Source: a virus. Taken from it: a DNA stretch of 38,717 nt. The stretch lies in the UHGV virus genome UHGV-0007863; one strand, 5' to 3'. The notes under the pieces were generated by a model. It made no database searches and was not told the DNA's origin. It was given only the letters and a program-made list of their open reading frames with translations. Below are positions 1-38,717 of the stretch, one piece after another. Within the stretch, counting starts at the first letter, position 1, and each line of letters opens with the position of its first letter. The position numbers and the translations under genes are program-made.

Positions 1-47
1 TTAACAGCTAACTCATAGCAACTCATTCCTATTCAGATACTAATTTA

Positions 48-73
48 ACCCTCTGTTTTTACAGAGGGTTTTT
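48..73. repeat. Terminator-like hairpin ACCCTCTGTTTTTACAGAGGGTTTTT; candidate attL core (left prophage boundary)
   Basis: Stem CCCTCTG/CAGAGGG followed by a T-run; a 24/26-identical copy sits at 38685-38710, with both differences in the loop. Confidence 0.4.
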
Positions 74-125
74 GTTTTTATGTATTCATTTCTATTCACT
101 CTACACCATATTTTTCGTCGGTACA

Positions 126-165
126 GGTGACGGTATTACCTTAAAGGTATACTCTCATACCGTCA
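126..165. promoter_or_regulatory. Integrase-upstream repeat cluster: GGTGACGGTAT (126-136), inverted copy ATACCGTCA (157-165), flanking a near-operator TTACC-TTAAA-GGTAT (136-150)
   Basis: Read directly; the same 11-mer GGTGACGGTAT recurs at 38559-38569 just inside the right end, as expected for integrase arm-type sites. Confidence 0.35.
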
Positions 166-192
166 TGAAAATGGTTTCTATACGGGTGAATT

Positions 193-1449
193 GTGCTTAC
201 CGATACAAAATTAAAAAACCTCAAGCCGCAGGACAAACTGTACAAGGTCTCCGATCGTGACGGGCTGTATGTAGCTGTGCTTACGTCAGGCACGGTCTCG
301 TTTCGCTATGACTACCGTATCAACGGTCGCCGCGAAACACTGGTAATCGGGCAGTATGGGCGTGACGGTATCAGCCTGGCAGAAGCGCGAGAAGAACTGA
401 TTGCTGCAAAGAAGCTGCTTAAAGCAGGCCAGTCACCGGCTGCGGCTAAACGTGACGGTATCAAAAAGATTCGTGGTGCCGAGACGTTTGCGGTACATAC
501 CGACAGTTATATGAAACACGTCATCCTGGCTGACAGTACCCGCGCAATGAAGCAGGCGGTGATCGACCGTGACATACTTCCGGTTCTTGGCAACAAAATG
601 ATGGCTGAAATTACCACATCGATGGTTCGTGATTTGTGTGACCGGATTGTCGAACGCGGTGGTCGGGCAACAGCAGTACAGGCCAGGGAGATCATCAGCA
701 GCGTATACCGTCACGCCAATGACCGTGGTCATGGTTTGTTTAATCCTGCGGCTGACATTAAACCTTCGTCTATCGCCATATTTAAACCACGAGAGCGAAC
801 ACTGACACCAGAAGAAATTGGCCTGTTCTTCCGCACGCTGGATGCCATTGGTGCTATGGGCACTATGAAAATGGCTTTAAAGCTGGTGCTTATCACTATG
901 GTTCGTAAAGGCGAATTCACCAATGCAACGTGGGATGAAATAGATTTTAAAAAATGGACATGGACAATTCCTTCAGACCGCATGAAGGGAAGCCGGGCGC
1001 ACGTTATTTACCTGCCTAAACAGGCACAGGATATATTGGTTGGGTTGCAGATGTGCGCTGGTGGAAGTGAATATCTGGTTCCTGGTCGTTACAATTTCCG
1101 GAAGCCATTATCTAATGCCGCGCTGAACTCTCTGATCGACAGAACGGTGAAAATAATAAATGAAGATGGTGAGCATATTCAGGGCTTCACCGTACACGAT
1201 ATGCGCCGTACAGCCAGTACGTTGTTGCATGAGGCTGGTTATCCTTCAGACTGGATTGAAAAGGCGCTGGCACATGAGCAGAAAGGTGTGCGCGCCGTAT
1301 ATAACAAAGCGGAATACGCCAGACAGCGCGCCTGGATGTTGCAGCAGTGGGCCGATATGATTGATTCCTGGATTAACGGGGAGCATACGGATCTGATTCC
1401 GTTCTCCCCGTCGAAGTTTGAGAGGTGGATGGAAGACAGTAATAAATAA
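193..1449 (+). CDS. int: Tyrosine integrase, P4-type (N-terminal arm-binding domain)
   Basis: 418 aa; N-terminus LTDTKLKNLKP...YRINGRRE typical of P4-like integrases; C-terminal catalytic region with HDMRRT and a conserved Tyr region; GTG start; position at the element end. Confidence 0.9.
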   Translation: MLTDTKLKNLKPQDKLYKVSDRDGLYVAVLTSGTVSFRYDYRINGRRETLVIGQYGRDGISLAEAREELIAAKKLLKAGQSPAAAKRDGIKKIRGAETFAVHTDSYMKHVILADSTRAMKQAVIDRDILPVLGNKMMAEITTSMVRDLCDRIVERGGRATAVQAREIISSVYRHANDRGHGLFNPAADIKPSSIAIFKPRERTLTPEEIGLFFRTLDAIGAMGTMKMALKLVLITMVRKGEFTNATWDEIDFKKWTWTIPSDRMKGSRAHVIYLPKQAQDILVGLQMCAGGSEYLVPGRYNFRKPLSNAALNSLIDRTVKIINEDGEHIQGFTVHDMRRTASTLLHEAGYPSDWIEKALAHEQKGVRAVYNKAEYARQRAWMLQQWADMIDSWINGEHTDLIPFSPSKFERWMEDSNK

Positions 1450-1451
1450 TT

Positions 1452-2111
1452 CTATCCTTCCTGGACTTTGGTAAGCGTCAGATTTCCGCAGAACACTGCG
1501 CCGGTGTCGATGTACATCTGGTTTGCATACACCAGTGGGTGATGTGCTGGCGTATGACCGAAGATGAACAAATCGGCACCGGTTATCTCCGAGACAATAC
1601 CGTCCTGCGCGTCGCTAACCCGCTCACGATTCCATATCACCATTTCTTCTGGTACTGGCTTATCGAATGCGTATTCGTTGTGCGGGTAGTCTGCGTGACA
1701 GATGACGACCTTCTTATTGCCGGTAACCAGTTCGATAATCATCGGGAGGTTGGTAATCTTTGGCAGAAGGTATTTGAGTTGCACATCCTGCTCAGAATCA
1801 AGTTGGTGCCACCATCCACCGCCGTTTGACATCCAATGTCCGAAACTTCCGCCGTTGACCAGTGCATCCAGCATCATCTGCTCATGGTTGCCACGAACAG
1901 CTCGGAACCACGGCATAGTAATCAAATCCAGGCATTCGACGTTTTCAGCGCCGCGGTCAACAAGGTCACCAACGGAAATAAGCAAATCGCGCGCCGGGTC
2001 GAATGAAACTTTGTCGAGTTCGTTCATCAGCAGCGTGTAGCACCCATGCAGATCGCCGACGACGAAGATATTGCACCAGTCAGCGCCATTGATGCGTTGA
2101 TATAGGTTCAT
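1452..2111 (-). CDS. Ser/Thr protein phosphatase, calcineurin-like metallophosphoesterase (lambda NinI / PrpA-like)
   Basis: 219 aa; PPP-family motifs GDLHG, GDLVDRG and GNHE present in order. Confidence 0.85.
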
Positions 2112-2770
2112 GCTGCACGCTCCCGCCCCTGGTTGTCTGTTGGTGACAGCGGAGCATTGCTGAATGCATTTGTTAATCTGGCAATATCCAACGCGTATCC
2201 AGGGTGTAGTTGCACTGCCGGGTCTTCACACTGATTACCCCAAACATCGAAGCCATGAGACGACTGGCGGGCGAACAGTTCAATGCGAGAAACATCGCCT
2301 AACAATTGCACAAGTTTTTCACGAACGACATCTGGTTTTCTTGAGTGCTCAAGCCGCGGTGCGGTAAATGACTGAACGATCCCTGCATTAATGCGCGGAG
2401 GTAGTTTTCCCTTTACCGCAAACAGGCAATCTTCACTATTGGCGCGAGTCATGTGTCCCATACCCATAACCAGTTTATCTGGTTGTCGACTACCACATTT
2501 TATCCACGTGAAGCCCTTCATCGTCATCAGACGAAATCCCCAGGCTTCAACAACTTTTAGTGCTTCGAGTGGTTGTGTTGGCACCCACCACATGGCCAAC
2601 AGACAGTTTTCATCGGCCAAATCCCACACAGGAAGGCGGCAGATATCCAGCACACTCATAACCGGATATTTAAAACCGACACCGCGATTACCATCTGCGG
2701 CTTTGTCCCGGTATACCCAAGGTGGATCTGCATAGATTAGTGTGTATTTCTTAGTCATAAACCACCCCAC
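2108..2770 (-). CDS. MT-A70-family N6-adenine DNA methyltransferase
   Basis: 220 aa; catalytic DPPW motif in IYADPPWVY near the N-terminus; 4-nt ATGA overlap with the downstream phosphatase gene. Confidence 0.8.
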
Positions 2771-3050
2771 AACATCCTATGCCGCTATAGTCGCCACGGC
2801 GAAGGCCGTTACCTTTTGTGATACATTGGTCCCTGCGAACCGCGATCCTTGCACGCTCAACATCACCAGAAGCAACATCCATGCACTGAAGCCAAAGGTG
2901 GGCGGCAATGCGGAACTGCCCTTTTTTCTCTCTTTCAATCGCGCGTTTTTCGATCTCTATCGCCGCAGGAGTAACGGCAACAACCTTTGAAGGGCTGCGC
3001 ATTGAAACCTTGTTCATGTGATATTTTTCAAGTCGGCTTAACTTTCTCAC
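2751..3050 (-). CDS. Hypothetical protein, first gene of the phosphatase/methyltransferase sub-operon
   Basis: 99-aa ORF overlapping the methyltransferase start by 20 nt; an internal Met could be the true start; no recognisable motif. Confidence 0.4.
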   Translation of the reverse strand: MRKLSRLEKYHMNKVSMRSPSKVVAVTPAAIEIEKRAIEREKKGQFRIAAHLWLQCMDVASGDVERARIAVRRDQCITKGNGLRRGDYSGIGCCGVVYD

Positions 3051-3159
3051 TTAATCCAACCCTCTCTGAAAATTAATGCCAGCAGATAAAGCCATGCTGA
3101 AACAGAGGCCAGGAATAAGTACCATCCTGACCATTTGCTCCAGTGCCTTAGCAGCGCAC

Positions 3160-3408
3160 TCATGCAGCGTTGCTCACAGGACGATATACACGTTGCTGAA
3201 CAGGAGGTTTTTTACCCTGGAACTCTGCCGGGCTTGCTGCCTGACGTTCATCAAGCCAACGCTCAACTTCGTCACGGTTCCATGCGCAGCGTTTGTCAGT
3301 GATATACCAGCGTTTAGGAAATTCACCTGCGCGCTCCATACGGTCGATAGTGCTCCATGACAGTGGCACCACCGCCAGGAGTTCCTTCTTACCTAATGCA
3401 CCTTTCAT
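3160..3408 (-). CDS. AlpA-family phage transcriptional regulator / excisionase-like protein
   Basis: 82 aa; LLAVVPLSWSTIDRMERAGEFPKRWYITDKRCAWNRDEVERWL matches the AlpA-type helix-turn-helix pattern. Confidence 0.75.
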   Translation of the reverse strand: MKGALGKKELLAVVPLSWSTIDRMERAGEFPKRWYITDKRCAWNRDEVERWLDERQAASPAEFQGKKPPVQQRVYRPVSNAA

Positions 3409-3457
3409 AAATACCTCTCTTGGTTGCAGTGCGGCGCGCGTGGCGCCGCGGTGGTGG

Positions 3458-4339
3458 TTACATAGATGTTTCGTTTAATTCTTCCCGACGAACGCTGTAA
3501 ACGTCGGTGGCTTTTGCCAGCAGTTCGTCATCATCTGAAAGTTTTTGTGCAATGTATTTGTAAGCCTTATCCAGTTCGGAGACAGTGCTGTAATTCATCG
3601 CTGCGCTGGTAAAGGCCATCAGCATTTCTTCTGGATCACGGCTATCCGCTTTACGCGTTTGCTCATCAGGCTTTTTCGCTGGTTTAGCGTTGATCAGACT
3701 GTTCATTCCCGCAGCAGTGGTCGTTTGCGGAGTAATGTCTCGCTCAACGCGCGGTGCCGTTTCCTGTAATTCGTCAGGGGTGTAAACACCGAGAAGTACA
3801 TCAGGAGCGTGCAGGCGAGCCCATCGTTTCGTGCAAAGATAGGCAAGCTGCTGGCGCGGATCCTGTTCCCACAATGGAGAGTTACGCACTCCGGCTTGCG
3901 CCATACTGATGGTAAGCTCACGGGGTTCTGCTTCTCCTTTAAGAACTGCTGACACAGTTACCGTCAGATTCGGTGATTTATCTGTTTTGCCGTTAACATT
4001 CGACCAGTCACCGCTCCAGCGATAATTCAGGCGTGTCGCTAGCAGGCTGGAAGAGGATACGACCGCGTTTACCAACTGTGCTTCGTAGCCTAACGTTCCG
4101 TTTACCACATGCGTTTTCTGCGCCACGGCGAAAGGGTTCATTCCCCACTGTGCCGCCTGCATGGTCACCGCCAGACAATCGGCAGGTTTGCCTTCAAGAT
4201 GTTTCGGTACAGTCGCTTTGCTTTGTGACATCAACTCCGCGAAACGCACCAGTTGATTCATGCCCTCCGGGCTGAAGATTGCCGCAGCAGTACCTACAGT
4301 TGCGCCTGGTTGTGATGTGATTGCGATATCATTGCTCAT
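3458..4339 (-). CDS. Single-strand annealing protein, Bet/RecT superfamily
   Basis: 293 aa; segment AAQWGMNPF resembles the lambda Bet core (ANQYGLNPW); 4-nt overlap with the upstream exonuclease gene. Confidence 0.65.
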   Translation of the reverse strand: MSNDIAITSQPGATVGTAAAIFSPEGMNQLVRFAELMSQSKATVPKHLEGKPADCLAVTMQAAQWGMNPFAVAQKTHVVNGTLGYEAQLVNAVVSSSSLLATRLNYRWSGDWSNVNGKTDKSPNLTVTVSAVLKGEAEPRELTISMAQAGVRNSPLWEQDPRQQLAYLCTKRWARLHAPDVLLGVYTPDELQETAPRVERDITPQTTTAAGMNSLINAKPAKKPDEQTRKADSRDPEEMLMAFTSAAMNYSTVSELDKAYKYIAQKLSDDDELLAKATDVYSVRREELNETSM

Positions 4340-5157
4340 ACGTACATATCCTGTTTACGTGCCCAGTCAGGGCGTTTAATAATTTCCACTCCGCCCCATT
4401 CATCGTTGATGCGGCATTCGTGATAGGTATTCAGATCCCGGCGGAACAGAGCGTGCCCGGCATCGACATCTGGCGCATCCAGCTCGAACACGCGTACCGG
4501 ATACCGACCACAATCAATGCTTTCGCTCACGGCAAGAAAGAAAAAACCATGCGGCTGACCAGTAACCCTCATTGCGCCTTCGCGGTACATTGCGTCCTGC
4601 ACGTGGTAGCGGAATTCCTCGATGTGGCGTGCAAAACGGTCCATATCTGCAACCTTTTTCACGTCGACGATCACGTTGTGCTCGTTCAGCCATTTGTCTG
4701 GACGAATTCGGCACAACTCACCCGTCTCTTCATCGTTCCAGTACATTGATGCTTCGCAGTAACCAGGTGCTTCCAGCATCCAGCGTGCCGCCGGGTGAGC
4801 CATTGCGCTATCACGCATCAGCTCCAGTTTTCGCCACTGCTCGACATCAAGTACCGTAATACCCATATCCGCCACATCACGAAGAAATGCTTCTTCGTCA
4901 GCTTTACCTTGTTTTGTCCGACGATCGAACTTCGGTGAAACAATGAAGCGTTTGTCGAATTCTCCAGGCTCCAGAAGCAGACAGTGCAATGCGGTTCCCA
5001 TATCCAGTGCAGACTTTTTCTCTTCGTCTTCTGGTGCTGCCTGAACCCATTTCAGAAGGGCAGGGTTCTTAGCCACCATATCTAGCTGCGACTTACTCAC
5101 GCCGTCACCGGCGTGGTAGTCCTCGTTGCTGATATCGAAATAAATTCCCGGATTCAT
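4336..5157 (-). CDS. PD-(D/E)XK exonuclease, RecE C-terminal-domain-like partner of the annealing protein
   Basis: 273 aa; D-x-K signature (IVDVKKV) and synteny with the annealing-protein gene. Confidence 0.65.
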   Translation of the reverse strand: MNPGIYFDISNEDYHAGDGVSKSQLDMVAKNPALLKWVQAAPEDEEKKSALDMGTALHCLLLEPGEFDKRFIVSPKFDRRTKQGKADEEAFLRDVADMGITVLDVEQWRKLELMRDSAMAHPAARWMLEAPGYCEASMYWNDEETGELCRIRPDKWLNEHNVIVDVKKVADMDRFARHIEEFRYHVQDAMYREGAMRVTGQPHGFFFLAVSESIDCGRYPVRVFELDAPDVDAGHALFRRDLNTYHECRINDEWGGVEIIKRPDWARKQDMYV

Positions 5158-5453
5158 GCCGCGTCCCTCTGCCCATCAATCTGATCAGCCAGATCCCAGC
5201 GGGCGATAATTGCCATTGCCTCGCGCCGGTAGGCATCCATTAGTTCTTCGAACTCAGGGCTGTCTTTAGCGGCCTCCAGTACTTCCTGGCGAACGCCTTT
5301 AACTGTTACAACGTCAAAAGTTGATGCCAGTTGATGAAGCCGGATACTCTCAATCAGTTCAACTTGTCGGTCATATAGCTGTTCTGACAGGCGGTAGTCC
5401 TTGTCGAATGCCAGCATGATTTTTTGAAGATTTTTCTGCTGATTAACGTTCAT
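5154..5453 (-). CDS. Hypothetical early protein
   Basis: ORF track gives 5154-5468; the internal ATG at 5453 (MNVNQQ...) has a strong GGGAGGG Shine-Dalgarno 6 nt upstream, so the shorter start is preferred. Confidence 0.5.
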   Translation of the reverse strand: MNVNQQKNLQKIMLAFDKDYRLSEQLYDRQVELIESIRLHQLASTFDVVTVKGVRQEVLEAAKDSPEFEELMDAYRREAMAIIARWDLADQIDGQRDAA

Positions 5454-5455
5454 TA

Positions 5456-5608
5456 TCAGCCCTCCCATATCTCGTTATCGTTGGCCACATCGCGAGCTTC
5501 TTTGCTGACGAAAGCCCACTTAATGCCTTCCTGTAATGTGCGGAACTTCCAGCTCATGAATCCGCATGCAGTAACGCAGTACCAACCGTTGATGATTTTC
5601 CACTGCAT
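5456..5608 (-). CDS. Candidate small protein (50 aa, Trp-rich), first gene of the leftward early operon
   Basis: Hand-translated: MQWKIINGWYCVTACGFMSWKFRTLQEGIKWAFVSKEARDVANDNEIWEG; GAGGT 8 nt upstream of ATG; below the ORF-track size cut-off. Confidence 0.3.
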   Translation of the reverse strand: MQWKIINGWYCVTACGFMSWKFRTLQEGIKWAFVSKEARDVANDNEIWEG

Positions 5609-5627
5609 AACTTGTTACCTCGGTCTG

Positions 5628-5704: not shown

Positions 5705-5711
5705 TCAAATA

Positions 5712-5739: not shown

Positions 5740-5761
5740 TTACTTACTGAAAAATATAGTT

Positions 5762-7092: not shown

Positions 7093-7903
7093 GGTTGAAG
7101 TTATCACTCCTGATAAACCTGAAATTTTTCAGATAGCAGAAATTCTGGGTATTGATCCAGATGCTGTTCTTGGAAAGCTGGTTCGTATATGGGCATGGGC
7201 TGACCAGCAAACAATAGACGGTAACGCTGGCAGCGTTACAAAAGGAGTACTTGATAGACTCGCTTTTATTACAGGATTTGCTGACGCCCTCATTAGCGTC
7301 GGATGGCTTGCTTATCATGACGGCAAACTAATTCTTCCAAACTTTGAGCGACACAATGGAGAATCATCGAAAAAACGTGCACTTACGAATAGAAGAGTGG
7401 CAGAGCATCGAAAACGAGTAACGCAAAAAGTAACGCCAACAGCGTTACAAAAGGAGTTACCAGAGGAAGAGGAAGAGGAAGATATATATAAAACCCCACA
7501 CATAGCGCACGTGCGCGAGGGTGCTCCGACCAGTGAAGCGAACGGTATGCCGTTGCAGGTGGCTGAACCTGAATTTCTGGATGGCCTGAGTGAACCCATC
7601 GGGAAATTTCCGATGACCGATGGCTGGCATCCGTCGCCGGATTTTCGACGGCGTGCTGCGCTGTGGGGAACGGCCCTGCCGGAACCGGAATTTACACCTG
7701 CTGAACTTGCTGCATTCCGGGATTACTGGATGGCTGAGGGCAAAGTGTTCACGCAGGTTCAGTGGGAACAAAAATTCGCCAGGCACGTAAATCATATCAG
7801 GGGAAAATCAAAAAACGCCGGGAAAAGCGATGAGCTTGACTGGAATAACACTGACTGGATAGAAGGGGTGTGGGATGAAATCAACTCCAGAACTTCTCAA
7901 TGA
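7073..7903 (+). CDS. Putative replication initiator (O-like) with internal iteron-like repeats
   Basis: ATG at 7073 with AGAGGGG Shine-Dalgarno; lies immediately upstream of the P-like gene; acidic linker PEEEEEED; function inferred from synteny and the internal repeats. Confidence 0.55.
   Translation: MASSWIKVEVITPDKPEIFQIAEILGIDPDAVLGKLVRIWAWADQQTIDGNAGSVTKGVLDRLAFITGFADALISVGWLAYHDGKLILPNFERHNGESSKKRALTNRRVAEHRKRVTQKVTPTALQKELPEEEEEEDIYKTPHIAHVREGAPTSEANGMPLQVAEPEFLDGLSEPIGKFPMTDGWHPSPDFRRRAALWGTALPEPEFTPAELAAFRDYWMAEGKVFTQVQWEQKFARHVNHIRGKSKNAGKSDELDWNNTDWIEGVWDEINSRTSQ
7221..7494. repeat. Candidate origin of replication inside the initiator gene
   Basis: GTAACGC half-sites at 7221(+), 7233(-), 7418(+), 7430(+), 7442(-); two copies of a ~28-bp unit GTAACGC-N5-GCGTTAC-AAAAGGAGT (7221-7248, 7430-7457) read in different frames; then (AGAGGA)x3 at 7462-7479 and an AT-rich GATATATATAAAA. 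Confidence 0.4.
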
Positions 7904-10666: not shown

Positions 10667-11381
10667 TTACCAGGCACTGCGTGAGGCGGCAGAGAAAGCA
10701 ACGTGGGGAGACTGGGACTCATATAAACCACACCGTGGCGCACGTGGTTATAAGGTCCGACTAAGTGGTCAGGCCATTGCGCAACACGTTCTGAAAAACA
10801 ACGCTGAATTTATTGCTGCCTTTAATCCAAAGGTTGCTTTGGCATTACTGGATGAACTGGAAAGAAACCAGCAATACATCAAATCTCGCGACCAGGAGAA
10901 CGAGGATATTGCGCTAACGGTAGGGAAGCTGTTAATCGAAAACGGTCAGCTTGTTGCCGATACGCTACGCCACTTAGCTGATAACGAAATCGACTCTGAT
11001 TATTTTGCTATCACCTCAACTAATGAGAACGGTACTGAAATTGATCATGAGATGTCTATTACCGATTACGCACTGCAAGCTGCCGGAACTGTAGACGAAT
11101 TGGTTGCGGCGCTGGAAGCCGCAAAATCAAAACTCAACGAGCAGCGTGAATATTACGAGGGAGTAATCGCGGATGGAAGTAAGCGCATAGCAGAGTTAGA
11201 AAGTGGTTCTCAGGCACAAAAGTTAGTTGAAGCAATCATTGTTGCGATAGAAAACGAACAGGAACGTCTTTTTGATGAAGATTACCTAATGGATTCGAAA
11301 GAATGCATTGACGTAATTCGTGAAGAAGTAAAGCGATGGAATGATTCCCGCGCCGCTGGCATTCGCATCAAAGGAGAGTGA
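10653..11381 (+). CDS. Ead/Ea22-like accessory protein
   Basis: 242 aa; N-terminus ...ALREAAEKATWGDW... as recalled for the Ea22-like family; acidic coiled-coil content. Confidence 0.45.
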   Translation: MSKINYQALREAAEKATWGDWDSYKPHRGARGYKVRLSGQAIAQHVLKNNAEFIAAFNPKVALALLDELERNQQYIKSRDQENEDIALTVGKLLIENGQLVADTLRHLADNEIDSDYFAITSTNENGTEIDHEMSITDYALQAAGTVDELVAALEAAKSKLNEQREYYEGVIADGSKRIAELESGSQAQKLVEAIIVAIENEQERLFDEDYLMDSKECIDVIREEVKRWNDSRAAGIRIKGE

Positions 11382-11382
11382 G

Positions 11383-11793
11383 ATGAACGCTATAACCAAA
11401 GAACGTATCAAATTATTCATTAAAAATCCGCTTGATAACGGACTTACTCGTGGCGAACAAATGGAACTGGCACGAATTGCTCTGGCATCGCTGGAAGCAG
11501 AGGCAGTTATGTTCTGTATATCAGGACAAAATGTAGATTCAGAAGAACATGTATCAACCAGCAAAGCGGTTGTTGATGCCTGGGTTGAAGAATGGAATCA
11601 GGTTGACGGAAGTCCTGGCGAACCACTGTACAAAACTATGCCACTCTACTATCACGCTGCCTTGCCAGCGCCGGTAGTGCCGGATGAAATGTATTGGCAG
11701 GATGCGCCAGTTGAAGGCAGCAGCAAAGCGGCTGCATACGCTACAGGCTGGAACGCCTGCCGCGCCGCTATGCTTCATGGGAAAGGAGAGTGA
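11383..11793 (+). CDS. Hypothetical protein, short paralog of the 12069-12833 gene
   Basis: 136 aa; first ~40 aa near-identical to the protein at 12069 (MNAITKERIKLFIKNPLDNGLTRGEQMELARIALASLEA); shares the GWNACRAAMLH motif; AAGGAGAG Shine-Dalgarno. Confidence 0.55.
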   Translation: MNAITKERIKLFIKNPLDNGLTRGEQMELARIALASLEAEAVMFCISGQNVDSEEHVSTSKAVVDAWVEEWNQVDGSPGEPLYKTMPLYYHAALPAPVVPDEMYWQDAPVEGSSKAAAYATGWNACRAAMLHGKGE

Positions 11794-11795
11794 TA

Positions 11796-12058
11796 TGGCA
11801 ACTTTAACAAAAAAAGAACGGGCATGGTTGAACGAATTACAGGACGTTCTTGATCGCTGCCCATCACCGAAAAAAATTGGTTTTTACACCATTGGCGATA
11901 AAAGCATTTACCTGTATGACCTGCGCCGCATGGATGAAATCATGGAGGCTCTTGATAATCGTTCGTCAATGGATTGGTGTGTTGCTGTCCATGATATGAA
12001 TGCAGGGTTTGATGAAAAGATTTTGTTCCCCTCATCAGTTGAAAGCACTGCGGGTTAA
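11796..12058 (+). CDS. Hypothetical small protein
   Basis: 87 aa; ATG at 11796 directly after the upstream stop, preceded by the same AAAGGAGAGTGA junction seen at 11370-11382. Confidence 0.45.
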
Positions 12059-12068
12059 GGAGTAACAC

Positions 12069-12833
12069 ATGACCACTATTACCAAAGAACGTATTGAATT
12101 GTTCATTAAAAATCCGCTTGAAAACGGGCTTACCCGTGGTGAACAAATGGAACTGGCACGGATTGCGCTGGCATCGCTGGAAGCAGATCCAGTTAAACGA
12201 GTTAACTCAGATCAGATGCGCCGAGTCTGCTTAGAAGCTAATCGCCATTTAGATAAATATGACGCGATGGCGAAAGAGGTAAATAAGTTGCTTGGACGCA
12301 TCGCCCCGCCAGCGCCGTTATTGCCGGAGGAAATGACACCAAAGCAAGCGTCACGTTCATATTGCGGAGAAGTTCGCGGTTATCGTGATGGCTGGAACGC
12401 CTGCCGCGCTGCCATGCTTCATAGTGCCGAACCTGCAAGTAATCATGAAGAGTTGCCGCTTGATTATCTCCAAGGTCAAAAAGATGGTCTTGAATGGGCT
12501 GCGCAGCTTGCAGAAGCAAATCACCCACAAACTGGCGACTGGCTTTACGATGACCCGCTGGAGCTGGCTAAAGCTATCAGAAAAGGTCCTGACATGCCCG
12601 AATTCGATGGACCAACTCCGGGAACTCCGGATGGTTGGATAAGCTGTAGTGAGCGAATGCCGGAAGAAACGGGTGACATTATTGTTGTTTCGGATGGCAT
12701 TGTAATGTCAGGGATTTCTTATTCTCGTCGTGACGGGTTCTATATAGCCGCATTGGAGTACGACGACGATGAGCCAATTGGCGGTGTAACCCACTGGATG
12801 CCTCTACCAGAACCGCCGCAGGAGGTGAAGTGA
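12069..12833 (+). CDS. DUF551-like protein
   Basis: 254 aa; C-terminus ...GGVTHWMPLPEPP matches the DUF551 hallmark as recalled; N-terminus paralogous to the 11383 gene. Confidence 0.6.
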   Translation: MTTITKERIELFIKNPLENGLTRGEQMELARIALASLEADPVKRVNSDQMRRVCLEANRHLDKYDAMAKEVNKLLGRIAPPAPLLPEEMTPKQASRSYCGEVRGYRDGWNACRAAMLHSAEPASNHEELPLDYLQGQKDGLEWAAQLAEANHPQTGDWLYDDPLELAKAIRKGPDMPEFDGPTPGTPDGWISCSERMPEETGDIIVVSDGIVMSGISYSRRDGFYIAALEYDDDEPIGGVTHWMPLPEPPQEVK

Positions 12834-16552: not shown

Positions 16553-16629
16553 TGGCGTGGCATGCAGGATTCGAACCTGCGACCAACCGCTTAGAAGGCG
16601 GTTGCTCTGTCCGACTGAGCTAATGCCAC
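16553..16629 (-). tRNA. tRNA-Arg (anticodon UCU), phage-encoded
   Basis: Manual cloverleaf: acceptor GTGGCAT/ATGCCAC, D-arm GCTC-AGTCGGACA-GAGC, anticodon arm ACCGC-CTTCTAA-GCGGT, T-arm GCAGG-TTCGAAT-CCTGC, discriminator G, encoded CCA; 77 nt. Confidence 0.85.
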
Positions 16630-19250: not shown

Positions 19251-19252
19251 TC

Positions 19253-33035: not shown

Positions 33036-33231
33036 GGAAGTGTTGTGTTTTTAATTATTTTGAGTGTGATAATTTCTGGTGTATTGTTATTTATTGACCG
33101 CTACAAATATTTTCTTAACCCTCAGACTCAAGCTATTTGCTGGTTCATCTTTGTTGTGCAGGGAGTAGTTCTTGTTGCAAGCCTTATTGAGGGGAGGCCT
33201 CTTATTTTTACTGGGTAAATTAGGTGACTAC

Positions 33232-33528
33232 ATGCAAGCTATAGGATTCATTGTTTATATCGTCGTTGGTCTTTTTCAGTTGGCAGCAATTATGGCTGGG
33301 CTTGAATCATGGTGGGGATTGCACTGGATAATTGCAGCCCCCATTGCTTTCATCGTGAGCTATATTCCATTTGTTGGAGCGATTGTTGGTATGGTTGGCG
33401 CTGTGGATGTATGGCGGTGGGAGTGGTGGCAGGCTGGCCTTCTCTTCTTTGGTGGGATCATCTTTGCTATTGTCTGCGGTGGAATGTCATCATTTTTCGA
33501 ATGGCTATCATTCAGAAAAGGGACGTGA
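33232..33528 (+). CDS. Small polytopic membrane protein (moron)
   Basis: ATG 33232 with AGGTGA upstream; 98 aa, almost entirely hydrophobic; preceded by an AT-rich stretch at 33036-33231. Confidence 0.5.
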   Translation: MQAIGFIVYIVVGLFQLAAIMAGLESWWGLHWIIAAPIAFIVSYIPFVGAIVGMVGAVDVWRWEWWQAGLLFFGGIIFAIVCGGMSSFFEWLSFRKGT

Positions 33529-33536
33529 CATGTCAC
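33525..33536. repeat. 12-bp perfect palindrome GTGACATGTCAC, copy 3 of 3
   Basis: Read directly; overlaps the TGA stop of the membrane-protein gene. Confidence 0.7.
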
Positions 33537-33537
33537 A

Positions 33538-33562
33538 GGCCGCTTTCGCGGCCTTTTCTTTA
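33538..33562 (+). terminator. Rho-independent terminator after the membrane-protein gene
   Basis: GGCCGC-TTTC-GCGGCC followed by TTTTCTTTAT; overlaps the 3' end of the convergent minus-strand gene. Confidence 0.6.
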
Positions 33563-33817
33563 TGTGGTTTGTTTTCGTAATTGTTCGGCACAATAGTCGA
33601 GATGTGTTTGCAGATCCCGCATAGACATCTGTGAGCTGGTGACGTAGTTAATCAGTGCAGTCAGTTCGGCAAGTGGGCCATCGACATTAAATCCATCCTT
33701 ATCGAGATCCCGGAGTAATTTCATCAAGTGCGATCCTTCCACCAGTGACCTGACGCCTCCCGGCGTGTGAATCCTTTCGGTAAATCCGTCTTCCAGTGGA
33801 TAGTGATACTGCTGCAT
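33560..33817 (-). CDS. Small LexA-box-associated protein; candidate SOS-inducible antirepressor
   Basis: 85 aa from ATG 33817 (MQQYHYPL...), GGAG 8 nt upstream; ORF track gives a TTG start at 33835; a LexA box sits 20-40 nt upstream; function is inference. Confidence 0.5.
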   Translation of the reverse strand: MQQYHYPLEDGFTERIHTPGGVRSLVEGSHLMKLLRDLDKDGFNVDGPLAELTALINYVTSSQMSMRDLQTHLDYCAEQLRKQTT

Positions 33818-33836
33818 CTTATCTTCTCCATGCAAT

Positions 33837-33856
33837 AACTGTATATTTATACAGTA
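33837..33856. promoter_or_regulatory. LexA (SOS) box AACTGTATATTTATACAGTA
   Basis: CTGT-N8-ACAG with AT-rich spacer; 18/20 to the consensus TACTGTATATATATACAGTA; overlaps the likely promoter of the minus-strand gene. Confidence 0.75.
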
Positions 33857-33893
33857 TCAAATAATTTGTTTGCTATCCAGCACGTTTTGCAAA

Positions 33894-33908
33894 TTACCTG
33901 AAAGGTAA
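33894..33908. promoter_or_regulatory. Perfect TTACC-TGAAA-GGTAA upstream of the tail-fiber gene
   Basis: Read directly; a half-site GGTAA at 33955-33959 follows. Confidence 0.6.
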
Positions 33909-34012
33909 TATCTATTCATATTTACAGCCTTTCTATCCATATGTGGTTTTTCAGGTAATAGAATAACCAGATATGCGGCGCAACGGGTGCTGCGACTATC
34001 TGGAGATTTAAC

Positions 34013-36142
34013 ATGACGGTCTCAACCGAAGTTGACCACAACGAATACACCGGTAACGGCGTTACGACATCGTTTCCGTATACTTTTCGAATTTTCAGAA
34101 AATCAGACCTGGTTGTTCAGGTGTCTGACCTGAACGGGAACGTAACAGAATTGGTCCTGGATACCGGTTATACGGTAACTGGGGCGGGCACTTATAGTGG
34201 CGGTTCTGTGGTTCTTCTGTCTCCGCTTGCTACTGGATGGCGAATTACGATAGATCGTGTGCTTGATGTAGTGCAGGAGACAGACCTTCGCAATCAGGGA
34301 AAATTTTTCCCCGAAGTGCATGAAGATGCCTTTGACTACCTGACGATGCTGATCCAGCAATGTTTTGGGTGGTTCAGACGTGCATTGATGAAGCCCTCTC
34401 TGCTTGCAAAATATTACGATGCAAAGCAAAACAGAATTTCTAACCTTGCAGATCCATCACTTGAGCAGGATGCTGTAAATAATCGCTCAATGCGTAATTA
34501 TGTCGATGCTGCAATCGCCGGGGTTGTTGGTGGTTTTGGTTGGTTTATTCAGTATGGTTCTGGGGCTGTGCACCGAACGTTCCAGGATAAGATGAGAGAC
34601 ACCATTAGTGTTCGTGATTTTGGTGCAAAAGGAGACGGCATAACAGATGATACTGTAGCAATTCAAAATGCTATTAATGCAGTACCAGAAGGGGCTATAC
34701 TTGGATTTTATGGTGGTGAATTTGTTTTTGATAAGGTTGAATTGTTTAAGCCAATAACATTAGTTGGTGATGCAACGTTAATTCACAACGGATTTAGAAT
34801 AAAATCTAGCAGAATCCGATCACTTTTATCTGGCGTTCAGAAATGCAAGGATTACTCCGAGTCTTCAAGAGCATTTTATTGCTATGCAAATGAAGACCAA
34901 AGAGATTATGACGATATTCAGATTTTATTTAATAGATTTGAAGGTTTCTTTTACTCTACGGCATTTGTTGCAAAAAACTATTATTTGGAGAATGACCCTA
35001 ATTCAAGAATTGTCAAAAACACAAAAGTAATAGGGTGTACATCAGTTGCTCCTGATTCTGTAAATGCCGGTCATTTTCAACATATAGGCGTTACAAATGC
35101 TGAAACATCACATAACTCAACTTATGGCGGACAAAATGCAACATCATACAACTTCATTAACCAGAATGGATTTGTAAGGATTATAGGAAATTATGACCAT
35201 AACAATAGCTATGGTTCATGTGAGCTTGAGAACTCAATGGTGAGTAACTCAGTCATATCAGGTAATACGTTTTCGTCATATTTATGGGTGGATGATACAA
35301 GTAATGTTACTATTTCTGGAAATACAGTTTCATCAGGGATCAAAGTAACATCGCAAACTGACGATGTTCATAATATAACCATATCAGCAAATACCACAAA
35401 ACGGATTACTATAGAGCAATTTGGAGAATCTCCAACAGGTCTGGTATATGGTGCATTAATTTCCTGCAACACTATTACTGGCGACAGTGATGGAAGTTCA
35501 GACATTTTATGTACGTCACTTGTTACAGGTGAAATTTCATCAAATTATTGTCATGGATCAGAAAAAAATATATCAATTGTCCGCCTGGATTCTTCTGATA
35601 TAACCGTTAGAAACAATAAAGGAAACAAAGGATTACTTACAATAAGTAACGATGGTGGAAGGATAATTGAATATGGCAATGATTCTATGGTTCTGTCTGG
35701 AAGCATAGATAGCAGACATATACATAATTTATTACATCCAGACACATCGTATTTAGATCTACCGGGGAAATATCTGCACGGAACTAAATATACTGGCAGT
35801 ATCCCCCCCGGTTCCACAGGAACTGTATCACTTCAAATACCATCAGGGGCAAGCCTTGTTTTCAGGGGGGTTTCTATATGGGTTCTAATTAGAGATGTTA
35901 GCAATAACAATATATCGTCATTCAGAATTGATGGTTCATATAGAGTTGTTGGTGGAAGTGTTGGTCTTAGTTTTGCTGATGCTTATTCGAAACTCGGGGT
36001 GGATGCAAACTCTATAACAGTGTCAAACAATAACAGCACTTCTGACAATATCAGCATAGCAATTAAAAACACAGATTCATCAAAAACCCTTCAGGTTACT
36101 GTTATGCCGGAGGTTTCAAGCAGGTTAGGTATTGAGGAATAG
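34013..36142 (+). CDS. Tail fiber / tailspike with T7 gp17-like N-terminal adaptor domain and beta-helix-like, AT-rich distal domain
   Basis: 709 aa; N-terminus parallels the T7 tail-fiber N-terminal pattern; distal part has repeats such as NVTISGNTVSSGIKV...NITISANTTK; base composition turns AT-rich from about 34600. Confidence 0.75.
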   Translation: MTVSTEVDHNEYTGNGVTTSFPYTFRIFRKSDLVVQVSDLNGNVTELVLDTGYTVTGAGTYSGGSVVLLSPLATGWRITIDRVLDVVQETDLRNQGKFFPEVHEDAFDYLTMLIQQCFGWFRRALMKPSLLAKYYDAKQNRISNLADPSLEQDAVNNRSMRNYVDAAIAGVVGGFGWFIQYGSGAVHRTFQDKMRDTISVRDFGAKGDGITDDTVAIQNAINAVPEGAILGFYGGEFVFDKVELFKPITLVGDATLIHNGFRIKSSRIRSLLSGVQKCKDYSESSRAFYCYANEDQRDYDDIQILFNRFEGFFYSTAFVAKNYYLENDPNSRIVKNTKVIGCTSVAPDSVNAGHFQHIGVTNAETSHNSTYGGQNATSYNFINQNGFVRIIGNYDHNNSYGSCELENSMVSNSVISGNTFSSYLWVDDTSNVTISGNTVSSGIKVTSQTDDVHNITISANTTKRITIEQFGESPTGLVYGALISCNTITGDSDGSSDILCTSLVTGEISSNYCHGSEKNISIVRLDSSDITVRNNKGNKGLLTISNDGGRIIEYGNDSMVLSGSIDSRHIHNLLHPDTSYLDLPGKYLHGTKYTGSIPPGSTGTVSLQIPSGASLVFRGVSIWVLIRDVSNNNISSFRIDGSYRVVGGSVGLSFADAYSKLGVDANSITVSNNNSTSDNISIAIKNTDSSKTLQVTVMPEVSSRLGIEE

Positions 36143-36170
36143 CATCATATATAATTATTTTAATGTTAAT

Positions 36171-36197
36171 GCCGTCTTCTTGTTGGCGGCTTATTTG
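36171..36197 (+). terminator. Terminator-like hairpin after the tail-fiber gene
   Basis: GCCGTC-N8-GGCGGC (one G-U pair) followed by TTATTT. Confidence 0.45.
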
Positions 36198-36218
36198 TGA
36201 AAATCGAATGAGTTATCT

Positions 36219-36518
36219 ATGATGAATATAGAAGTTGATATAACACCAATTCTTCACGCACTTTGCGCTGTTGTCGCACAAGTTCTTGTTGGTCTTTTTA
36301 CCGGAAACTGGGCTTACGGTGCGATAGCCGGTTGTACGTTCTTCATTGCGCGTGAACACACCCAGGCAGAATATCGCTGGATAGAAAAGTTTGGGAAAGG
36401 GAAACGTATCAACATGCCGTGGTGGGGAGGTTTTGATCCGCGCGTATGGGATGTTGGAAGCCTGTTTGACTTTGTTGTTCCTGTTACTGTTTGTTTTTGT
36501 GTTTATTTCTCTATTTGA
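36219..36518 (+). CDS. Hypothetical membrane protein between tail fiber and lysis cassette
   Basis: 99 aa with hydrophobic N- and C-terminal segments; weak Shine-Dalgarno. Confidence 0.45.
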   Translation: MMNIEVDITPILHALCAVVAQVLVGLFTGNWAYGAIAGCTFFIAREHTQAEYRWIEKFGKGKRINMPWWGGFDPRVWDVGSLFDFVVPVTVCFCVYFSI

Positions 36519-36740
36519 CTGCTACCGCGCCATTTGATGGTGCGGAATTCAACTAATCCTCTATATTTTGAATCATTTCTGTACTGCAATCTCTTCAGAG
36601 TTATGTAAAAGGCAAGCCTTATTATCGACATGAAAGGAAGGGGATTGACAATACATGGGTAACAAAAAACCATAAATGGTTTATCATGCATAATGCCTTT
36701 ACTATTCAGGAGGTAGTTATGCATATAAACGGTGGAAAAC

Positions 36741-37145
36741 ATGTCAGCTCAACTAACCAGTGAAACTTTAAATCAGTGGCTTAGCATGAGTTCTCTGGCG
36801 GCGGTGATAGCAGGAGTTCCTCCTGAGGTTGCTTTGGGGGCTTTGGCTGGGGCGGTAATTTTTGTTACCTCTGCGGTAGAGTATCCTATTCGTCGTCGTG
36901 TACTCTTGTCGATGCTTAGCTTTCTCTGCGGCCTTCTTTTTTATAAACCAGCAGCATCAATTCTTATCGGCATAGCCAGCCTGATCCCTACCATCACGCA
37001 GGACTCTTTTGAAAAAGGGATTGTTTTCTCAGTTGGCGCATTCGTGTCAGCAATTGTTGCTGTGCGTATTGGTATATGGCTCTATCACCGTTCCGATAAT
37101 CCACGCGAGTTAATTCCGGGGAGAAAAGACGATGGTAACGCATGA
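36741..37145 (+). CDS. Putative holin
   Basis: ATG 36741 with GGTGG 5 nt upstream; ~134 aa with three to four hydrophobic helices and a charged C-terminus; first gene of the lysis cassette. Confidence 0.55.
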   Translation: MSAQLTSETLNQWLSMSSLAAVIAGVPPEVALGALAGAVIFVTSAVEYPIRRRVLLSMLSFLCGLLFYKPAASILIGIASLIPTITQDSFEKGIVFSVGAFVSAIVAVRIGIWLYHRSDNPRELIPGRKDDGNA

Positions 37146-37440
37146 GTTTTTTTTGCTTATCACCAATGCAGTTATTTGTACTGGCATAGCAATTCGCGTT
37201 GTCACATTCCGGCGTAACGGCTCTCAACATCGAAGATGGGGAGGGTGGCTTGCTTATTTCCTTATTGTTGCTGCGGCCAGTATTCCTGTTCGTGTCGTCT
37301 ATGCAATCTGGTTACGCACGCCAATGGCTGTGGATTTATCTGAGGTCATTATCAACGCTGTCATGCTCGCCGCGGTTATTAAAACACGCGGTAACGTTGT
37401 TCAGATTTTCAAAATATCGAGGTCTAAACATGGAGATTAA
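37132..37440 (+). CDS. Second small membrane protein of the lysis cassette (holin or antiholin-like)
   Basis: 102 aa with at least two transmembrane segments; overlapping stop/start with holin and endolysin. Confidence 0.45.
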
Positions 37441-38059
37441 ACAATTCCAGCGAGCTGCTGGTATTAGCGAGTCGCTGGCCGCACGCTGGTTCTCGCATAT
37501 AACTTCTGCGATGAAAGAGTTTGGTATCAGCAAAGCAGAAGATCAGGCAATGTTTATTGCTCAGGTCGGGCATGAGTCTGGGGGCTTCACCCGGTTGCAG
37601 GAGAATTTCAACTACAGCGTCAGCGGTCTGGCTAACTTTGTTCGGGCTGGGCGTCTCACTCAGGGACAGGCCAACGCATTGGGGCGACGCGCAGGCGAAC
37701 CACCATTGCCACCTGAGCGCCAGAGAGCGATTGCCAATCTGGTGTACAGCAAACGCATGGGTAACAATGCTCCTGGCGATGGCTGGAACTACCGTGGGCG
37801 CGGACTTATCCAGATTACCGGTTTGAATAACTATCGTGATTGTGGAAACGCTCTTAAGGTTGACCTGCTGGAGAGTCCTGAATTGCTGGCGCAGGACGAA
37901 TACGCGGCTCGTAGCGCGGCGTGGTTCTTCTCCAGCAAAGGCTGCATGAAGTATACCGGAGATATTGCACGTGTAACTCTGCTTATCAATGGTGGCCGGA
38001 ACGGCATTGATGACCGGCGCGCGCGATACATCACTGCCAGTAAGGTGCTGGCGTTATGA
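37430..38059 (+). CDS. Endolysin, glycoside hydrolase family 19-like (chitinase-fold lysozyme)
   Basis: ATG 37430 in frame within ORF 37199-38059; motifs [12 protein letters not shown] and [12 protein letters not shown] recalled as typical of GH19-type endolysins; position between holin and spanins. Confidence 0.65.
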
Positions 38060-38553
38060 TCTGGGCATTCGCAAAAGCATACTGGAAACAGTTGGTTATC
38101 ATGGCGATGCTTGCTGTTCTGGTCATATCAGGAGTTGTAGCCTGGAATGCACACGGCATTCGTCAGTACGACGCCGGGTATGCGCAGGCACAGGAAGATC
38201 AGAAACAGGCTGATGATAAGGCCAGGTCACAACGTGATCAGGAGAAAACACAAATTGAACGTGAAGCACAATCCCGTATCGATGTGGCGCGTGTTGATGC
38301 TGAGCATGCTAATGCCGCTGCTGACAGCCTGCGCGCCGAGCTTGACAAAACCAAGCGACTCGCCGAACACTATACCGGATCTTTCCCCACTGGCACGCCA
38401 GCCAGCAAGGTCATCGGTGTGCTCGCCGACATGCTTGAAGAAAGCAACCGAGTTTACAACGCAACAGCAACTGAGGCTGAAAAGTATCGGATTGCAGGAG
38501 AATCCTGCGAACAGCAATACGATTCACTGAAGAAGCAAAAATCGTGGCACTGA
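38056..38553 (+). CDS. i-spanin (Rz-like)
   Basis: 165 aa; N-terminal transmembrane helix, charged coiled-coil periplasmic domain; immediately after the endolysin. Confidence 0.65.
38282..38530 (+). CDS. o-spanin (Rz1-like lipoprotein) nested in the +1 frame of the i-spanin gene
   Basis: [16 protein letters not shown]|C lipobox-type signal, Pro-rich mature region; entirely inside 38056-38553. Confidence 0.6.
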   Translation: MWRVLMLSMLMPLLTACAPSLTKPSDSPNTIPDLSPLARQPARSSVCSPTCLKKATEFTTQQQLRLKSIGLQENPANSNTIH

Positions 38554-38558
38554 TTTCC

Positions 38559-38569
38559 GGTGACGGTAT
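38559..38569. repeat. GGTGACGGTAT, copy of the left-end arm-like 11-mer
   Basis: Identical to 126-136; followed by a partial repeat AACGGTACGGTG. Confidence 0.3.
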
Positions 38570-38684
38570 ATAAAACGGTACGGTGAAAATCAGGTTGCAG
38601 AAAGTTATTATCAGTCAATTGGTTATGTGTGTCGTAAATAATTGAGTGGGAATGATTTTGATCCCTGCACTATGAATGAACAAA

Positions 38685-38710
38685 ACCCTCTGTTACTACA
38701 GAGGGTTTTT
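38685..38710. repeat. Terminator-like hairpin ACCCTCTGTTACTACAGAGGGTTTTT; candidate attR core (right prophage boundary)
   Basis: 24/26 identical to 48-73; also serves as terminator of the lysis operon. Confidence 0.4.
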
Positions 38711-38717
38711 TATCTTC

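Follow-up and report, generated by a model that had tools for sequence, protein, structure and literature searches.

The attP-int modules of Escherichia phages vB_EcoP_ZX5 (ZX5) and phiV10 and of Salmonella phage epsilon15 (genus Uetakevirus) are the closest described systems to the element analyzed here, and they share one order of genes and sites: lysis genes, P-arm motif, 17-bp core, spacer, terminator hairpin, P' motifs, and int. The attB, attL, and attR sites of ZX5 were determined by PCR and Sanger sequencing, which gave the core attgagtgggaatgatt, placed at the 17-mer, and the same attP is stated to be proven for phiV10 and epsilon15 (PMC9782041). Insertion at guaA has likewise been reported for TL-2011b (PMC3293862). 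A guaA-integrating prophage system of this type is already known, its target being a protein-coding gene as opposed to a tRNA. The 3' end of guaA is also the target of other elements, among them GIsul2 and streptococcal ICEs (PMC9376610 and PMC4701971).

Location of the element in the chromosome

The sequence under study, UHGV virus genome UHGV-0007863, comprises 38,717 nucleotides (the window, meaning this entire stretch). With a probability of about 0.93, we read it as a Uetakevirus (epsilon15/phiV10/ZX5-type) prophage at the 3' end of guaA, with crossover in a 17-bp core, a phage-borne left hairpin, a right hairpin that is the displaced host terminator, and 11-mers that are arm-type sites. 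In nucleotide comparison, ZX5, HEMP4, and TL-2011b have 98% identity over 81 to 84% of window positions 1 to 25000, while epsilon15 and PAT1 have 77 to 78% identity to the window. The attP region of ZX5 is identical over positions 1 to 80 and 99.4% identical over positions 1 to 800, and the order from lysis cassette to att to int is that of ZX5 and epsilon15. Nothing essential separates the window from ZX5, phiV10, and epsilon15, except that it is integrated, which puts P at one end and P' at the other and brings in the host's native terminator at the right edge.

The prophage lies between guaA and yfgI in Escherichia coli FDAARGOS_1285 and IAI39. The IAI39 sequence is 100% identical over window positions 1 to 420, and its guaA coding sequence ends one base before position 1. 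The left edge of the window is the base that follows the guaA stop codon, and the final 2 nt of the attL core are thereby included; its right edge lies 60 nt past the attR core, and in the chromosome yfgI begins 33 nt beyond that edge. Of 5,426 E. coli genomes, 5,404 contain part of the right-end query, but no more than 546 contain the left end. The preliminary description of this sequence had taken the window for a prophage and proposed comparison with an unoccupied site. Such sites are present in related genomes: an attB reconstructed from left flank, core, and right flank is matched at 100% identity and is uninterrupted in 4,569 of the 5,426 genomes.

The integrase gene had been placed at the left end, where an open reading frame with a GTG start indeed occupies positions 193 to 1449 (+ strand), starting 120 nt past the left hairpin. 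By the open reading frame list and Pfam, it encodes a tyrosine recombinase whose N-terminal domain is of the arm-binding type (PF13356 Arm-DNA-bind_3, 2.9e-19) and which also has Phage_int_M and Phage_integrase (5.9e-19) matches. A promoter scan found no int promoter. Nearby, positions 3160 to 3408 (- strand) encode an 82-aa candidate excisionase or directionality factor of the AlpA family (Pfam Phage_AlpA, E = 3.1e-5; score of 24.2 bits, cut-off 21). The last phage gene before attR (38056 to 38553, + strand) encodes a DUF2514 protein (Pfam, 4.4e-23), an Rz-like spanin according to the annotation of related phages.

Crossover core and junctions

The att core of the window, ATTGAGTGGGAATGATT, is identical to that of ZX5, phiV10, and epsilon15 and consists of the last four guaA codons, the stop codon, and TT. 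At attR, all 17 bp are present at 38641 to 38657 (+ strand), as a phage look-alike of the guaA 3' end (IEWE, stop, TT). At attL, the window holds the last two bases of the core (TT, positions 1 to 2, + strand), the remaining 15 bases being the end of guaA just left of the window. This attL core and the adjacency to guaA would follow for the window from the sequences of other genomes, which match it with 100% identity over positions 1 to 420. Genomes that share the left end of the window carry a full attL core copy; in FDAARGOS_1285, attL has the sequence ...ccagctaccATTGAGTGGGAATGATTaacagc. In circular ZX5, window position 38657 adjoins position 1 with a 2-bp overlap.

The DNA on the two sides of the core differs in origin. 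Positions 3 to 46 (+ strand), the P' arm spacer between the core and the phage terminator, are phage specific and identical to the attP of free phage ZX5; structure and Rfam searches of this spacer returned no significant structure and no Rfam family. Positions 38658 to 38717 (+ strand) are host chromosome, namely guaA-yfgI intergenic DNA with the native guaA/yfgI terminator; at unoccupied sites in E. coli they follow guaA without interruption, with 100% identity. Among the sampled phage genomes, matches stop near 38657 and the final 60 positions are absent; the sole record of the phage collection that includes them is that of TL-2011b, which is prophage derived and extends into host genes. 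The 26-nt host spacer at attR (TTGATCCCTGCACTATGAATGAACAA) is unrelated to the phage spacer at 3 to 46.

Klebsiella sequences help to refine the site of exchange. The Klebsiella attB reads ATTGAGTGGGAGTAA or ATTGAGTGGGAATAA, while attL carries the phage ATGATT, and these relatives narrow strand exchange to the left 11 bp of the core, ATTGAGTGGGA. As the phage carries the last codons and stop codon of guaA, the gene is restored upon insertion. In our reading, a P4-like, arm-binding tyrosine integrase inserted the phage at the E. coli guaA 3' end by recombination within the 17-bp identity common to attP and attB.

Origin of the two hairpins

A repeat search returns a 27-nt pair at 47 to 73 and 38684 to 38710 with 93% identity, encompassing the hairpins ACCCTCTGTTTTTACAGAGGGTTTTT (48 to 73) and ACCCTCTGTTACTACAGAGGGTTTTT (38685 to 38710). 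Both fold into 10- to 12-bp hairpins followed by T runs, with energies of -15.9 and -17.8 kcal/mol (z = -5.4 and -5.7), none of 200 shuffles folds as well as either, and a terminator scan detects both. The left one (47 to 73, + strand) is a predicted rho-independent terminator with stem AACCCTCTGT/ACAGAGGGTT, loop TTTT, and a T run. It is phage borne: it is found in free phage genomes too, 45 nt past the core, is kept in 11 of 11 aligned family members from four host genera, and is annotated as a terminator in the phiV10 and epsilon15 records. Stem substitutions in relatives are all from U-A to U-G, with which the RNA of the + strand stays paired. The right hairpin, at 38684 to 38710 (+ strand) and 26 nt past the core, belongs to the native guaA/yfgI terminator (38682 to 38709), which looks bidirectional; it consists of host DNA and is intact in the same 4,569 genomes with an unoccupied site.

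In a lysogen, the left hairpin stands directly downstream of guaA and most likely replaces the native guaA terminator, which is displaced and forms the right hairpin. There, the left hairpin could end guaBA transcripts and keep read-through out of int, while in the circular phage it may end the lysis-operon transcript ahead of int.

The preliminary description had recorded these hairpins and the 11-mers described below at the positions found here, and their occurrence is far beyond chance. Its suggestion of a look-alike 3' end in the phage is also supported: the phage hairpin resembles the terminator of the host gene. What does not stand is its view that the hairpins are the attL and attR repeats and that the crossover took place within a host gene's terminator hairpin. 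Such a reading draws on the presence of one hairpin copy in each of attP, attB, attL, and attR, which superficially mimics the behavior of a core site. However, because positions 3 to 46, from the guaA stop codon to the left hairpin, are phage sequence and the stretch from the 17-mer to the right hairpin is host sequence, the switch between host and phage must lie 26 to 45 nt upstream of the hairpins. It falls at the 17-mer and the guaA stop codon, outside the repeats, at unequal distances of 45 nt in attL and 26 nt in attR. The Sanger-sequenced junctions also give the 17-mer (PMC9782041), these being junctions of ZX5, a 98%-identical relative of the window. A crossover that junction sequencing places elsewhere is an outcome that the preliminary description had itself named as contrary to its proposal. 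This comparison refutes a crossover within the hairpins, to which we assign very little probability. Even less probable is that the window represents a circularly permuted free-phage genome with the hairpins as ordinary tandem terminators. Each makes a good terminator, and circularizing the window would bring the two next to each other, about 80 bp apart, but the second hairpin is absent from the virion-derived relatives ZX5, phiV10, epsilon15, SPN1S, PAT1, and Tyrion. The host origin of 38658 to 38717, seen in the contiguity with guaA at unoccupied sites, in the position of yfgI next in the chromosome, and in the near-universal right-end matches, refutes this arrangement.

How the two hairpins came to be alike is a separate matter. 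They look alike because the 10-bp stem of the phage copy is also that of the conserved terminator that follows guaA in enterobacteria, and descent from that terminator is the most likely explanation of the sequence similarity. Functional convergence of two unrelated terminators is improbable, if less so than the readings above. In its favor, the likeness is confined to the hairpin and stops at its edges, with unrelated spacers and downstream sequences, and other guaA-integrating elements have a different terminator after the same core; in our genome scan, these elements show the same core and then their own terminator and repeated motifs. On the other hand, native copies from E. coli, Klebsiella, and other hosts have exactly the stem of the phage copy, and this stem reappears at attR junctions whose host spacers and loops are of several different kinds. 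We estimate that two independent stems would agree by chance with a probability of about 4^-10. Integrases of the P4-like class are also found in elements that, as a general habit, carry a copy of the 3' end of the target gene. Under descent, the phage terminator would copy the stem of the enterobacterial guaA terminator, unlike the other guaA element families with their GCCCGC-type hairpin.

Putative arm-type motifs on both sides of the core

The 11-mer GGTGACGGTAT occurs exactly at 126 to 136 and 38559 to 38569. With one mismatch allowed, there are seven matches in the window against 0.37 expected, a number reached in none of 100 shuffles, and six of the eight window copies of GACGGTAT fall within positions 1 to 800 or 38500 to 38717. 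Comparison across relatives indicates that the 11-mer belongs to a conserved, putatively arm-type motif, GTGACGGTAT, which the epsilon15 GenBank record annotates four times, in the same layout, as protein_bind "integrase," a feature that appears to be a sequence prediction. These observations support the suggestion of the preliminary description that integrase arm-type sites lie inside both junctions, in that the 11-mer behaves like such a site to either side of the core.

On the P' side, the predicted sites at 119 to 140 (+ strand) consist of CGGTAC and then GGTGACGGTATTACC, which includes the left 11-mer, and a 13-nt block, TGACGGTATTACC, is invariant across four host genera; its epsilon15 counterpart is one of the 10-mers GTGACGGTAT that bear the integrase annotation. 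An inverted copy, ATACCGTCA, lies at 157 to 165 (- strand), as had been claimed, and is largely conserved in the family alignment. A further 12-nt block, CTATTCACTCTA (92 to 103), is invariant among seven attP-form phages from four host genera. On the P side, the predicted sites at 38559 to 38580 (+ strand) read GGTGACGGTAT-ATAAA-ACGGTA, and epsilon15 has an annotated integrase site here. No invariant block in the entire attP alignment is longer than the 21-nt GTGACGGTATATAAAACGGTA in this arm, on either side of which the sequences diverge. Overall, CGGTA/TACCG 5-mers are invariant in five of seven cases, against a background of 5.8% (P = 1.2e-5).

These copies are candidate arm-type sites for the N-terminal domain of the integrase, on both sides of the core and continuing into the int reading frame. 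They may contribute to assembly of the recombination complex and perhaps also to control of int by its own product. The arrangement resembles a lambda-type attP, on which a tyrosine integrase acts that binds core as well as arm sites, in the separate N-terminal arm-binding domain, the repeated non-core motif flanking a short core on both sides, and the candidate AlpA-family directionality factor encoded nearby. Unlike that of lambda, the integrase is of the P4-like branch, cd00801 INT_P4 being cited in the phiV10 record, and the motif copies run several hundred base pairs into the int reading frame. The exact IHF consensus WATCAANNNNTTR is not found in the att region; the epsilon15 record annotates three IHF sites, which likewise appear to be predictions.

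Conserved motif copies within int

Three of the one-mismatch matches to the 11-mer lie inside the integrase reading frame, at 361, 451, and 705. The motif CGTGACGGTATCA occurs at 361 to 373 and again at 451 to 463 (both + strand), each annotated as an integrase site in epsilon15. A pair of half-motifs, GCGGTA-CA-TACCGAC, at 490 to 504 forms a conserved palindrome, CGGTACATACCGAC, that is not annotated in epsilon15. The inverted copy at 705 to 715 (- strand) is a weak candidate in which only TACCG is conserved and the 8-mer is not invariant.

Conservation was assessed over 990 nt of int in nine sequences from four host genera, in which 18% of third positions are invariant and the three longest invariant runs all carry the motif. 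The longest, 14 nt, lies within 490 to 504, with five consecutive invariant third positions. Second among fully invariant runs is GTGACGGTATCA, at the first motif, where four consecutive third positions are invariant and the codons specify RDGI. At the second motif, GACGGTAT is invariant in nine of nine sequences.

We consider it less likely than not that the copies at 362 to 373, 454 to 461, and 491 to 504 owe their conservation to coding or mRNA constraints and that only the intergenic copies are arm sites. The copies within int encode RDGI twice, in the arm-binding domain itself, and are 370 to 510 bp from the core, whereas the arm sites of lambda are closer to its core than this. Against a coding explanation, the runs of four and five invariant third positions fall exactly at the motifs, the same 8- to 10-mer is a conserved element in the noncoding P and P' arms, and in epsilon15 an Arg is replaced by Cys through a change one base outside the 10-mer, leaving GTGACGGTAT intact.

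We therefore put forward, tentatively and at somewhat less than even odds, that the attP and regulatory region of these phages reaches about 500 bp into the int reading frame. Its three sites there (362 to 373, 454 to 461, and the unannotated palindrome at 491 to 504) would be kept invariant at synonymous positions by binding of Int to its own coding sequence, for intasome assembly or autoregulation. Separately, and with the same reserve, the copy of the guaA terminator may be kept to restore the 3' end of the guaBA transcript.

Results

Over its first 25 kb, the window shares 98% identity, across 81-84% of the length, with Escherichia phages vB_EcoP_ZX5, HEMP4, and TL-2011b, and 77-78% identity with Salmonella phages epsilon15 and PAT1. 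[quoted passage not shown] As the preliminary description had it, an integrase gene stands at the left end: int (193-1449, + strand) is a tyrosine integrase ORF with Arm-DNA-bind_3, Phage_int_M, and Phage_integrase domains. Holin, endolysin, and DUF2514 spanin genes lie at the right end, and an AlpA-family 82-aa ORF (3160-3408, - strand) is a candidate excision factor. The cargo adjoining int (1452-3050, - strand) is unlike that of close relatives and comprises a calcineurin-like phosphoesterase, an MT-A70 methyltransferase, and a PerC-like regulator; the prophage of E. coli FDAARGOS_1285 carries DUF1382, MT-A70, and DGQHR-domain proteins at the equivalent place. A tRNA-Arg gene (anticodon TCT; 16553-16629, - strand) sits mid-prophage and is likewise annotated in related O157 typing phages. 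Direct repeats at 11371-12422 (139 nt at 86% identity, plus a further two of 33 nt, with spacings of 644-686 nt) connect ORF 11341-11793 with the DUF551 ORF at 12069-12833, which suggests partial gene duplication. In the early region, a 28-nt repeat, GTAACGCTGGCAGCGTTACAAAAGGAGT, occurs at 7221-7248 and 7430-7457, 209 nt apart; it combines a palindromic hairpin with a downstream AAGGAG that resembles an RBS.

Integrase-based retrieval from IMG/VR returned only 98-100% identical relatives, mostly ending 6 nt upstream of int. As these were too close and clipped, diverged GenBank phages were used for comparison. ZX5, an isolated phage with a circular genome, matches the right end of the window only to 38657 and then continues at window position 1, the two matches overlapping by 2 bp. 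Among the sampled phage relatives, the match to the right end stops near the same point, TL-2011b excepted. The TL-2011b record is prophage-derived and extends past attR into host genes, which is why it alone among the phage records matches the hairpin at the right end. This "complete genome" (JQ011317.1; stretch 41,270-44,784) runs ~3.4 kb past attR, taking in yfgI, yfgH, and yfgG and reaching the beginning of pdeF. In a collection of 5,426 complete E. coli genomes, window 38300-38717 has matches in 5,404, only 190 of them over most of the query length, whereas window 1-420 has matches in 546 genomes only; this marks the right tip as core chromosome and the left as mobile DNA.

The element was correctly described as a prophage. 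In E. coli FDAARGOS_1285 it is placed between guaA and yfgI, where attL reads ...CCAGCTACC-ATTGAGTGGGAATGATT-AACAGCTAACTC... and attR reads ...CGTAAATA-ATTGAGTGGGAATGATT-TTGATCCCTGC.... The junction repeat, ATTGAGTGGGAATGATT, is 17 bp long and consists of the final four guaA codons (IEWE), TGA, and TT. E. coli IAI39 shows 100% identity to window 1-420, and its guaA coding sequence stops a single base short of window position 1; the window therefore holds only the terminal TT of the left core copy. On the right side, a full copy (38641-38657) is followed by 60 nt of host DNA. The empty site, reassembled from both flanks, was found at 100% identity and is uninterrupted in 4,569 of the 5,426 genomes. 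The source DNA directly before window position 1 would thus be expected to end ...CCAGCTACCATTGAGTGGGAATGA, the repaired attB would read guaA-17-mer-TTGATCCC, and the excised attP would join 38657 to position 3 through a single 17-mer. For ZX5, attB, attL, and attR have been amplified and Sanger sequenced, with the core attgagtgggaatgatt at the guaA 3' end, ~190 bp upstream of int, and the same attP is stated as proven for phiV10 and epsilon15 (PMC9782041). Insertion at guaA has also been reported for TL-2011b (PMC3293862). A contiguous guaA-yfgI site is lacking in 857 of the 5,426 genomes, compared with 546 that carry this integrase end; ~300 genomes may have a different insertion or a rearrangement at the locus.

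The preliminary description had taken two hairpins, one near each end, as the att repeats. The hairpins themselves are exactly where it put them, ACCCTCTGTTTTTACAGAGGGTTTTT at 48-73 and ACCCTCTGTTACTACAGAGGGTTTTT at 38685-38710, and a repeat search pairs 47-73 with 38684-38710 (27 nt, 93% identity). Their folds have stems of 10-12 bp and a T tail, at -15.9 and -17.8 kcal/mol (z ~ -5.5; 0 of 200 shuffles as good), and both are terminator-like in a terminator scan. Since attP, attB, attL, and attR each have one hairpin, the pair resembles a recombination core, as would be expected if crossover occurred inside it. However, window 3-46, the 44 nt that separate the left hairpin from the guaA stop region, matches free ZX5 exactly, the 26 nt from the 17-mer to the right hairpin match the empty site exactly, and the hairpins stand at unequal offsets from the core, 45 versus 26 nt. 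The switch from host to phage therefore falls at the 17-mer, outside the hairpins. By sequence origin, the left hairpin is phage P'-arm DNA (the phage side running from position 3 toward int) and the right one is the native guaA/yfgI terminator. Tandem terminators within a permuted phage genome were rejected as well, the second hairpin being present in none of the sampled packaged relatives. No Rfam family scored above threshold on the attL side or in the host flank, so a known sRNA or leader is unsupported there. An RNase III-type structure in the 3-46 spacer, annotated in epsilon15, was also discarded, as the fold gives just a 4-bp helix.

Klebsiella relatives, with int ~79% identical in DNA and ~82% in protein, integrate at the same place and narrow the crossover. 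Klebsiella guaA 3' ends read ATTGAGTGGGAGTAA or ATTGAGTGGGAATAA; attL has phage ...GGGAATGATTAAC and attR has host ...GGGAGTAATCC. As identity there covers only 11-13 bp, these relatives point to strand exchange within ATTGAGTGGGA.

The 11-mer earlier proposed as an integrase arm-type site, GGTGACGGTAT, has exact copies at 126-136 and 38559-38569 and an inverted copy, ATACCGTCA, at 157-165, all as first described. Allowing one mismatch gives 7 matches versus 0.37 expected; three of the added matches fall within the integrase ORF, at 361, 451, and 705. The GenBank record of epsilon15 annotates GTGACGGTAT as integrase binding four times (one in the P arm, one in the P' arm, and two inside int), together with three IHF sites and a terminator, a layout that matches the window. 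An exact IHF consensus was not found near att.

An attP alignment was built from seven attP-form phages of four host genera. The longest invariant block, GTGACGGTATATAAAACGGTA (38560-38580), is in the P arm; others cover the core (AATAATTGAGTGGGAATGAT, 38637-38656), the terminator hairpin arms (AACCCTCTGT, 47-56, and GGGTTTTT, 66-73), and the P' arm (TGACGGTATTACC, 128-140). A 12-nt invariant block, CTATTCACTCTA (92-103), follows the phage terminator and precedes the P' motif; it is possibly a promoter element or accessory-factor site. A sigma-70 scan of 1-1500 did not find an int promoter, and a by-eye candidate overlapping the P' motif (-35 GTGACG, -10 TATACT, 15-nt spacing) was too weak for a promoter claim. 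Inside int, the invariant motifs are GTGACGGTATCA (362-373), GACGGTAT (454-461), and CGGTACATACCGAC (491-504), the last belonging to a palindromic pair of arm-motif halves at 490-504 that the epsilon15 record leaves unannotated.

When nine int sequences representing four host genera are compared, just 18% of third codon positions are the same throughout. Ranked by length, the top three invariant runs over 990 nt of int nevertheless coincide exactly with the motif sites at 362-373, 454-461, and 491-504, headed by CGGTACATACCGAC, and the motif sites include stretches of 4 and 5 invariant third positions in a row. Five of the 7 CGGTA/TACCG 5-mers show no variation, versus a 5.8% background (P = 1.2e-5). 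At the first in-gene site, epsilon15 has an Arg-to-Cys change, the altered base lying one outside the 10-mer. These patterns are good evidence that the int copies are held by DNA-level constraint across four host genera, and support the arm-type proposal, with the copies as predicted Int sites.

The preliminary description also recognized a look-alike of a host 3' element, correctly so. IMG/VR prophage attR junctions show at least five distinct host spacers (E. coli variants, Klebsiella, and others), all followed by the stem AACCCTCTGT/ACAGAGGGTT with varying loops; from this comparison, the stem is taken to be the conserved enterobacterial guaA terminator. The same stem occurs in the P' arm of 11/11 aligned family members (E. 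coli, Salmonella, Enterobacter, and Klebsiella), nearly always with a TTTT loop and preceded by a phage-specific spacer. Stem changes among them are only U-A to U-G (four one-sided, none broken), which keeps pairing in + strand RNA and loses it in the complement, a pattern that fits a terminator of rightward transcription rather than a DNA palindrome. We infer that the phage hairpin descended from a host guaA terminator. Convergence is a formal alternative, and the confinement of phage/host similarity to the hairpin speaks for it. Whether the phage hairpin acts in a lysogen or in circular phage, its proposed effect is termination: in the former it would restore guaBA termination and shield int from read-through, and in the latter it would end the lysis transcript before int. 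The equivalent hairpin is already annotated as a terminator in the phiV10 and epsilon15 records.

A genome-contig scan found the exact 17-mer ATTGAGTGGGAATGATT downstream of guaA in >120 species of many phyla among the matches listed, none of these being E. coli or Salmonella; the guaA C terminus and the 17-mer are very widely conserved. Among the matches listed, many unrelated genera have common non-native blocks right after the 17-mer, e.g., TCGCGTCTGGCA...AAGCCCGCGTAACTGCGGGCTTTTTT...GTCTGGCA, the alphaproteobacterial and clostridial sets have differing conserved blocks, and some native guaA terminators were also recovered. The non-native blocks look like other islands integrating at the guaA 3' end, with a terminator and repeated motifs particular to each island.

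Discussion

Two features go beyond existing annotation: the constrained motif copies in the int ORF, one of them palindromic and absent from the epsilon15 annotation, and the apparent copying of the conserved host guaA terminator by the stem of the phage terminator. Neither would alter the understanding of lambda-type integration. The practical value lies in correct prophage delimitation: at the guaA stop codon, the 17-mer is the true junction repeat, the hairpin pair is unsuitable as att sites, and the window ends in 60 nt of host DNA.
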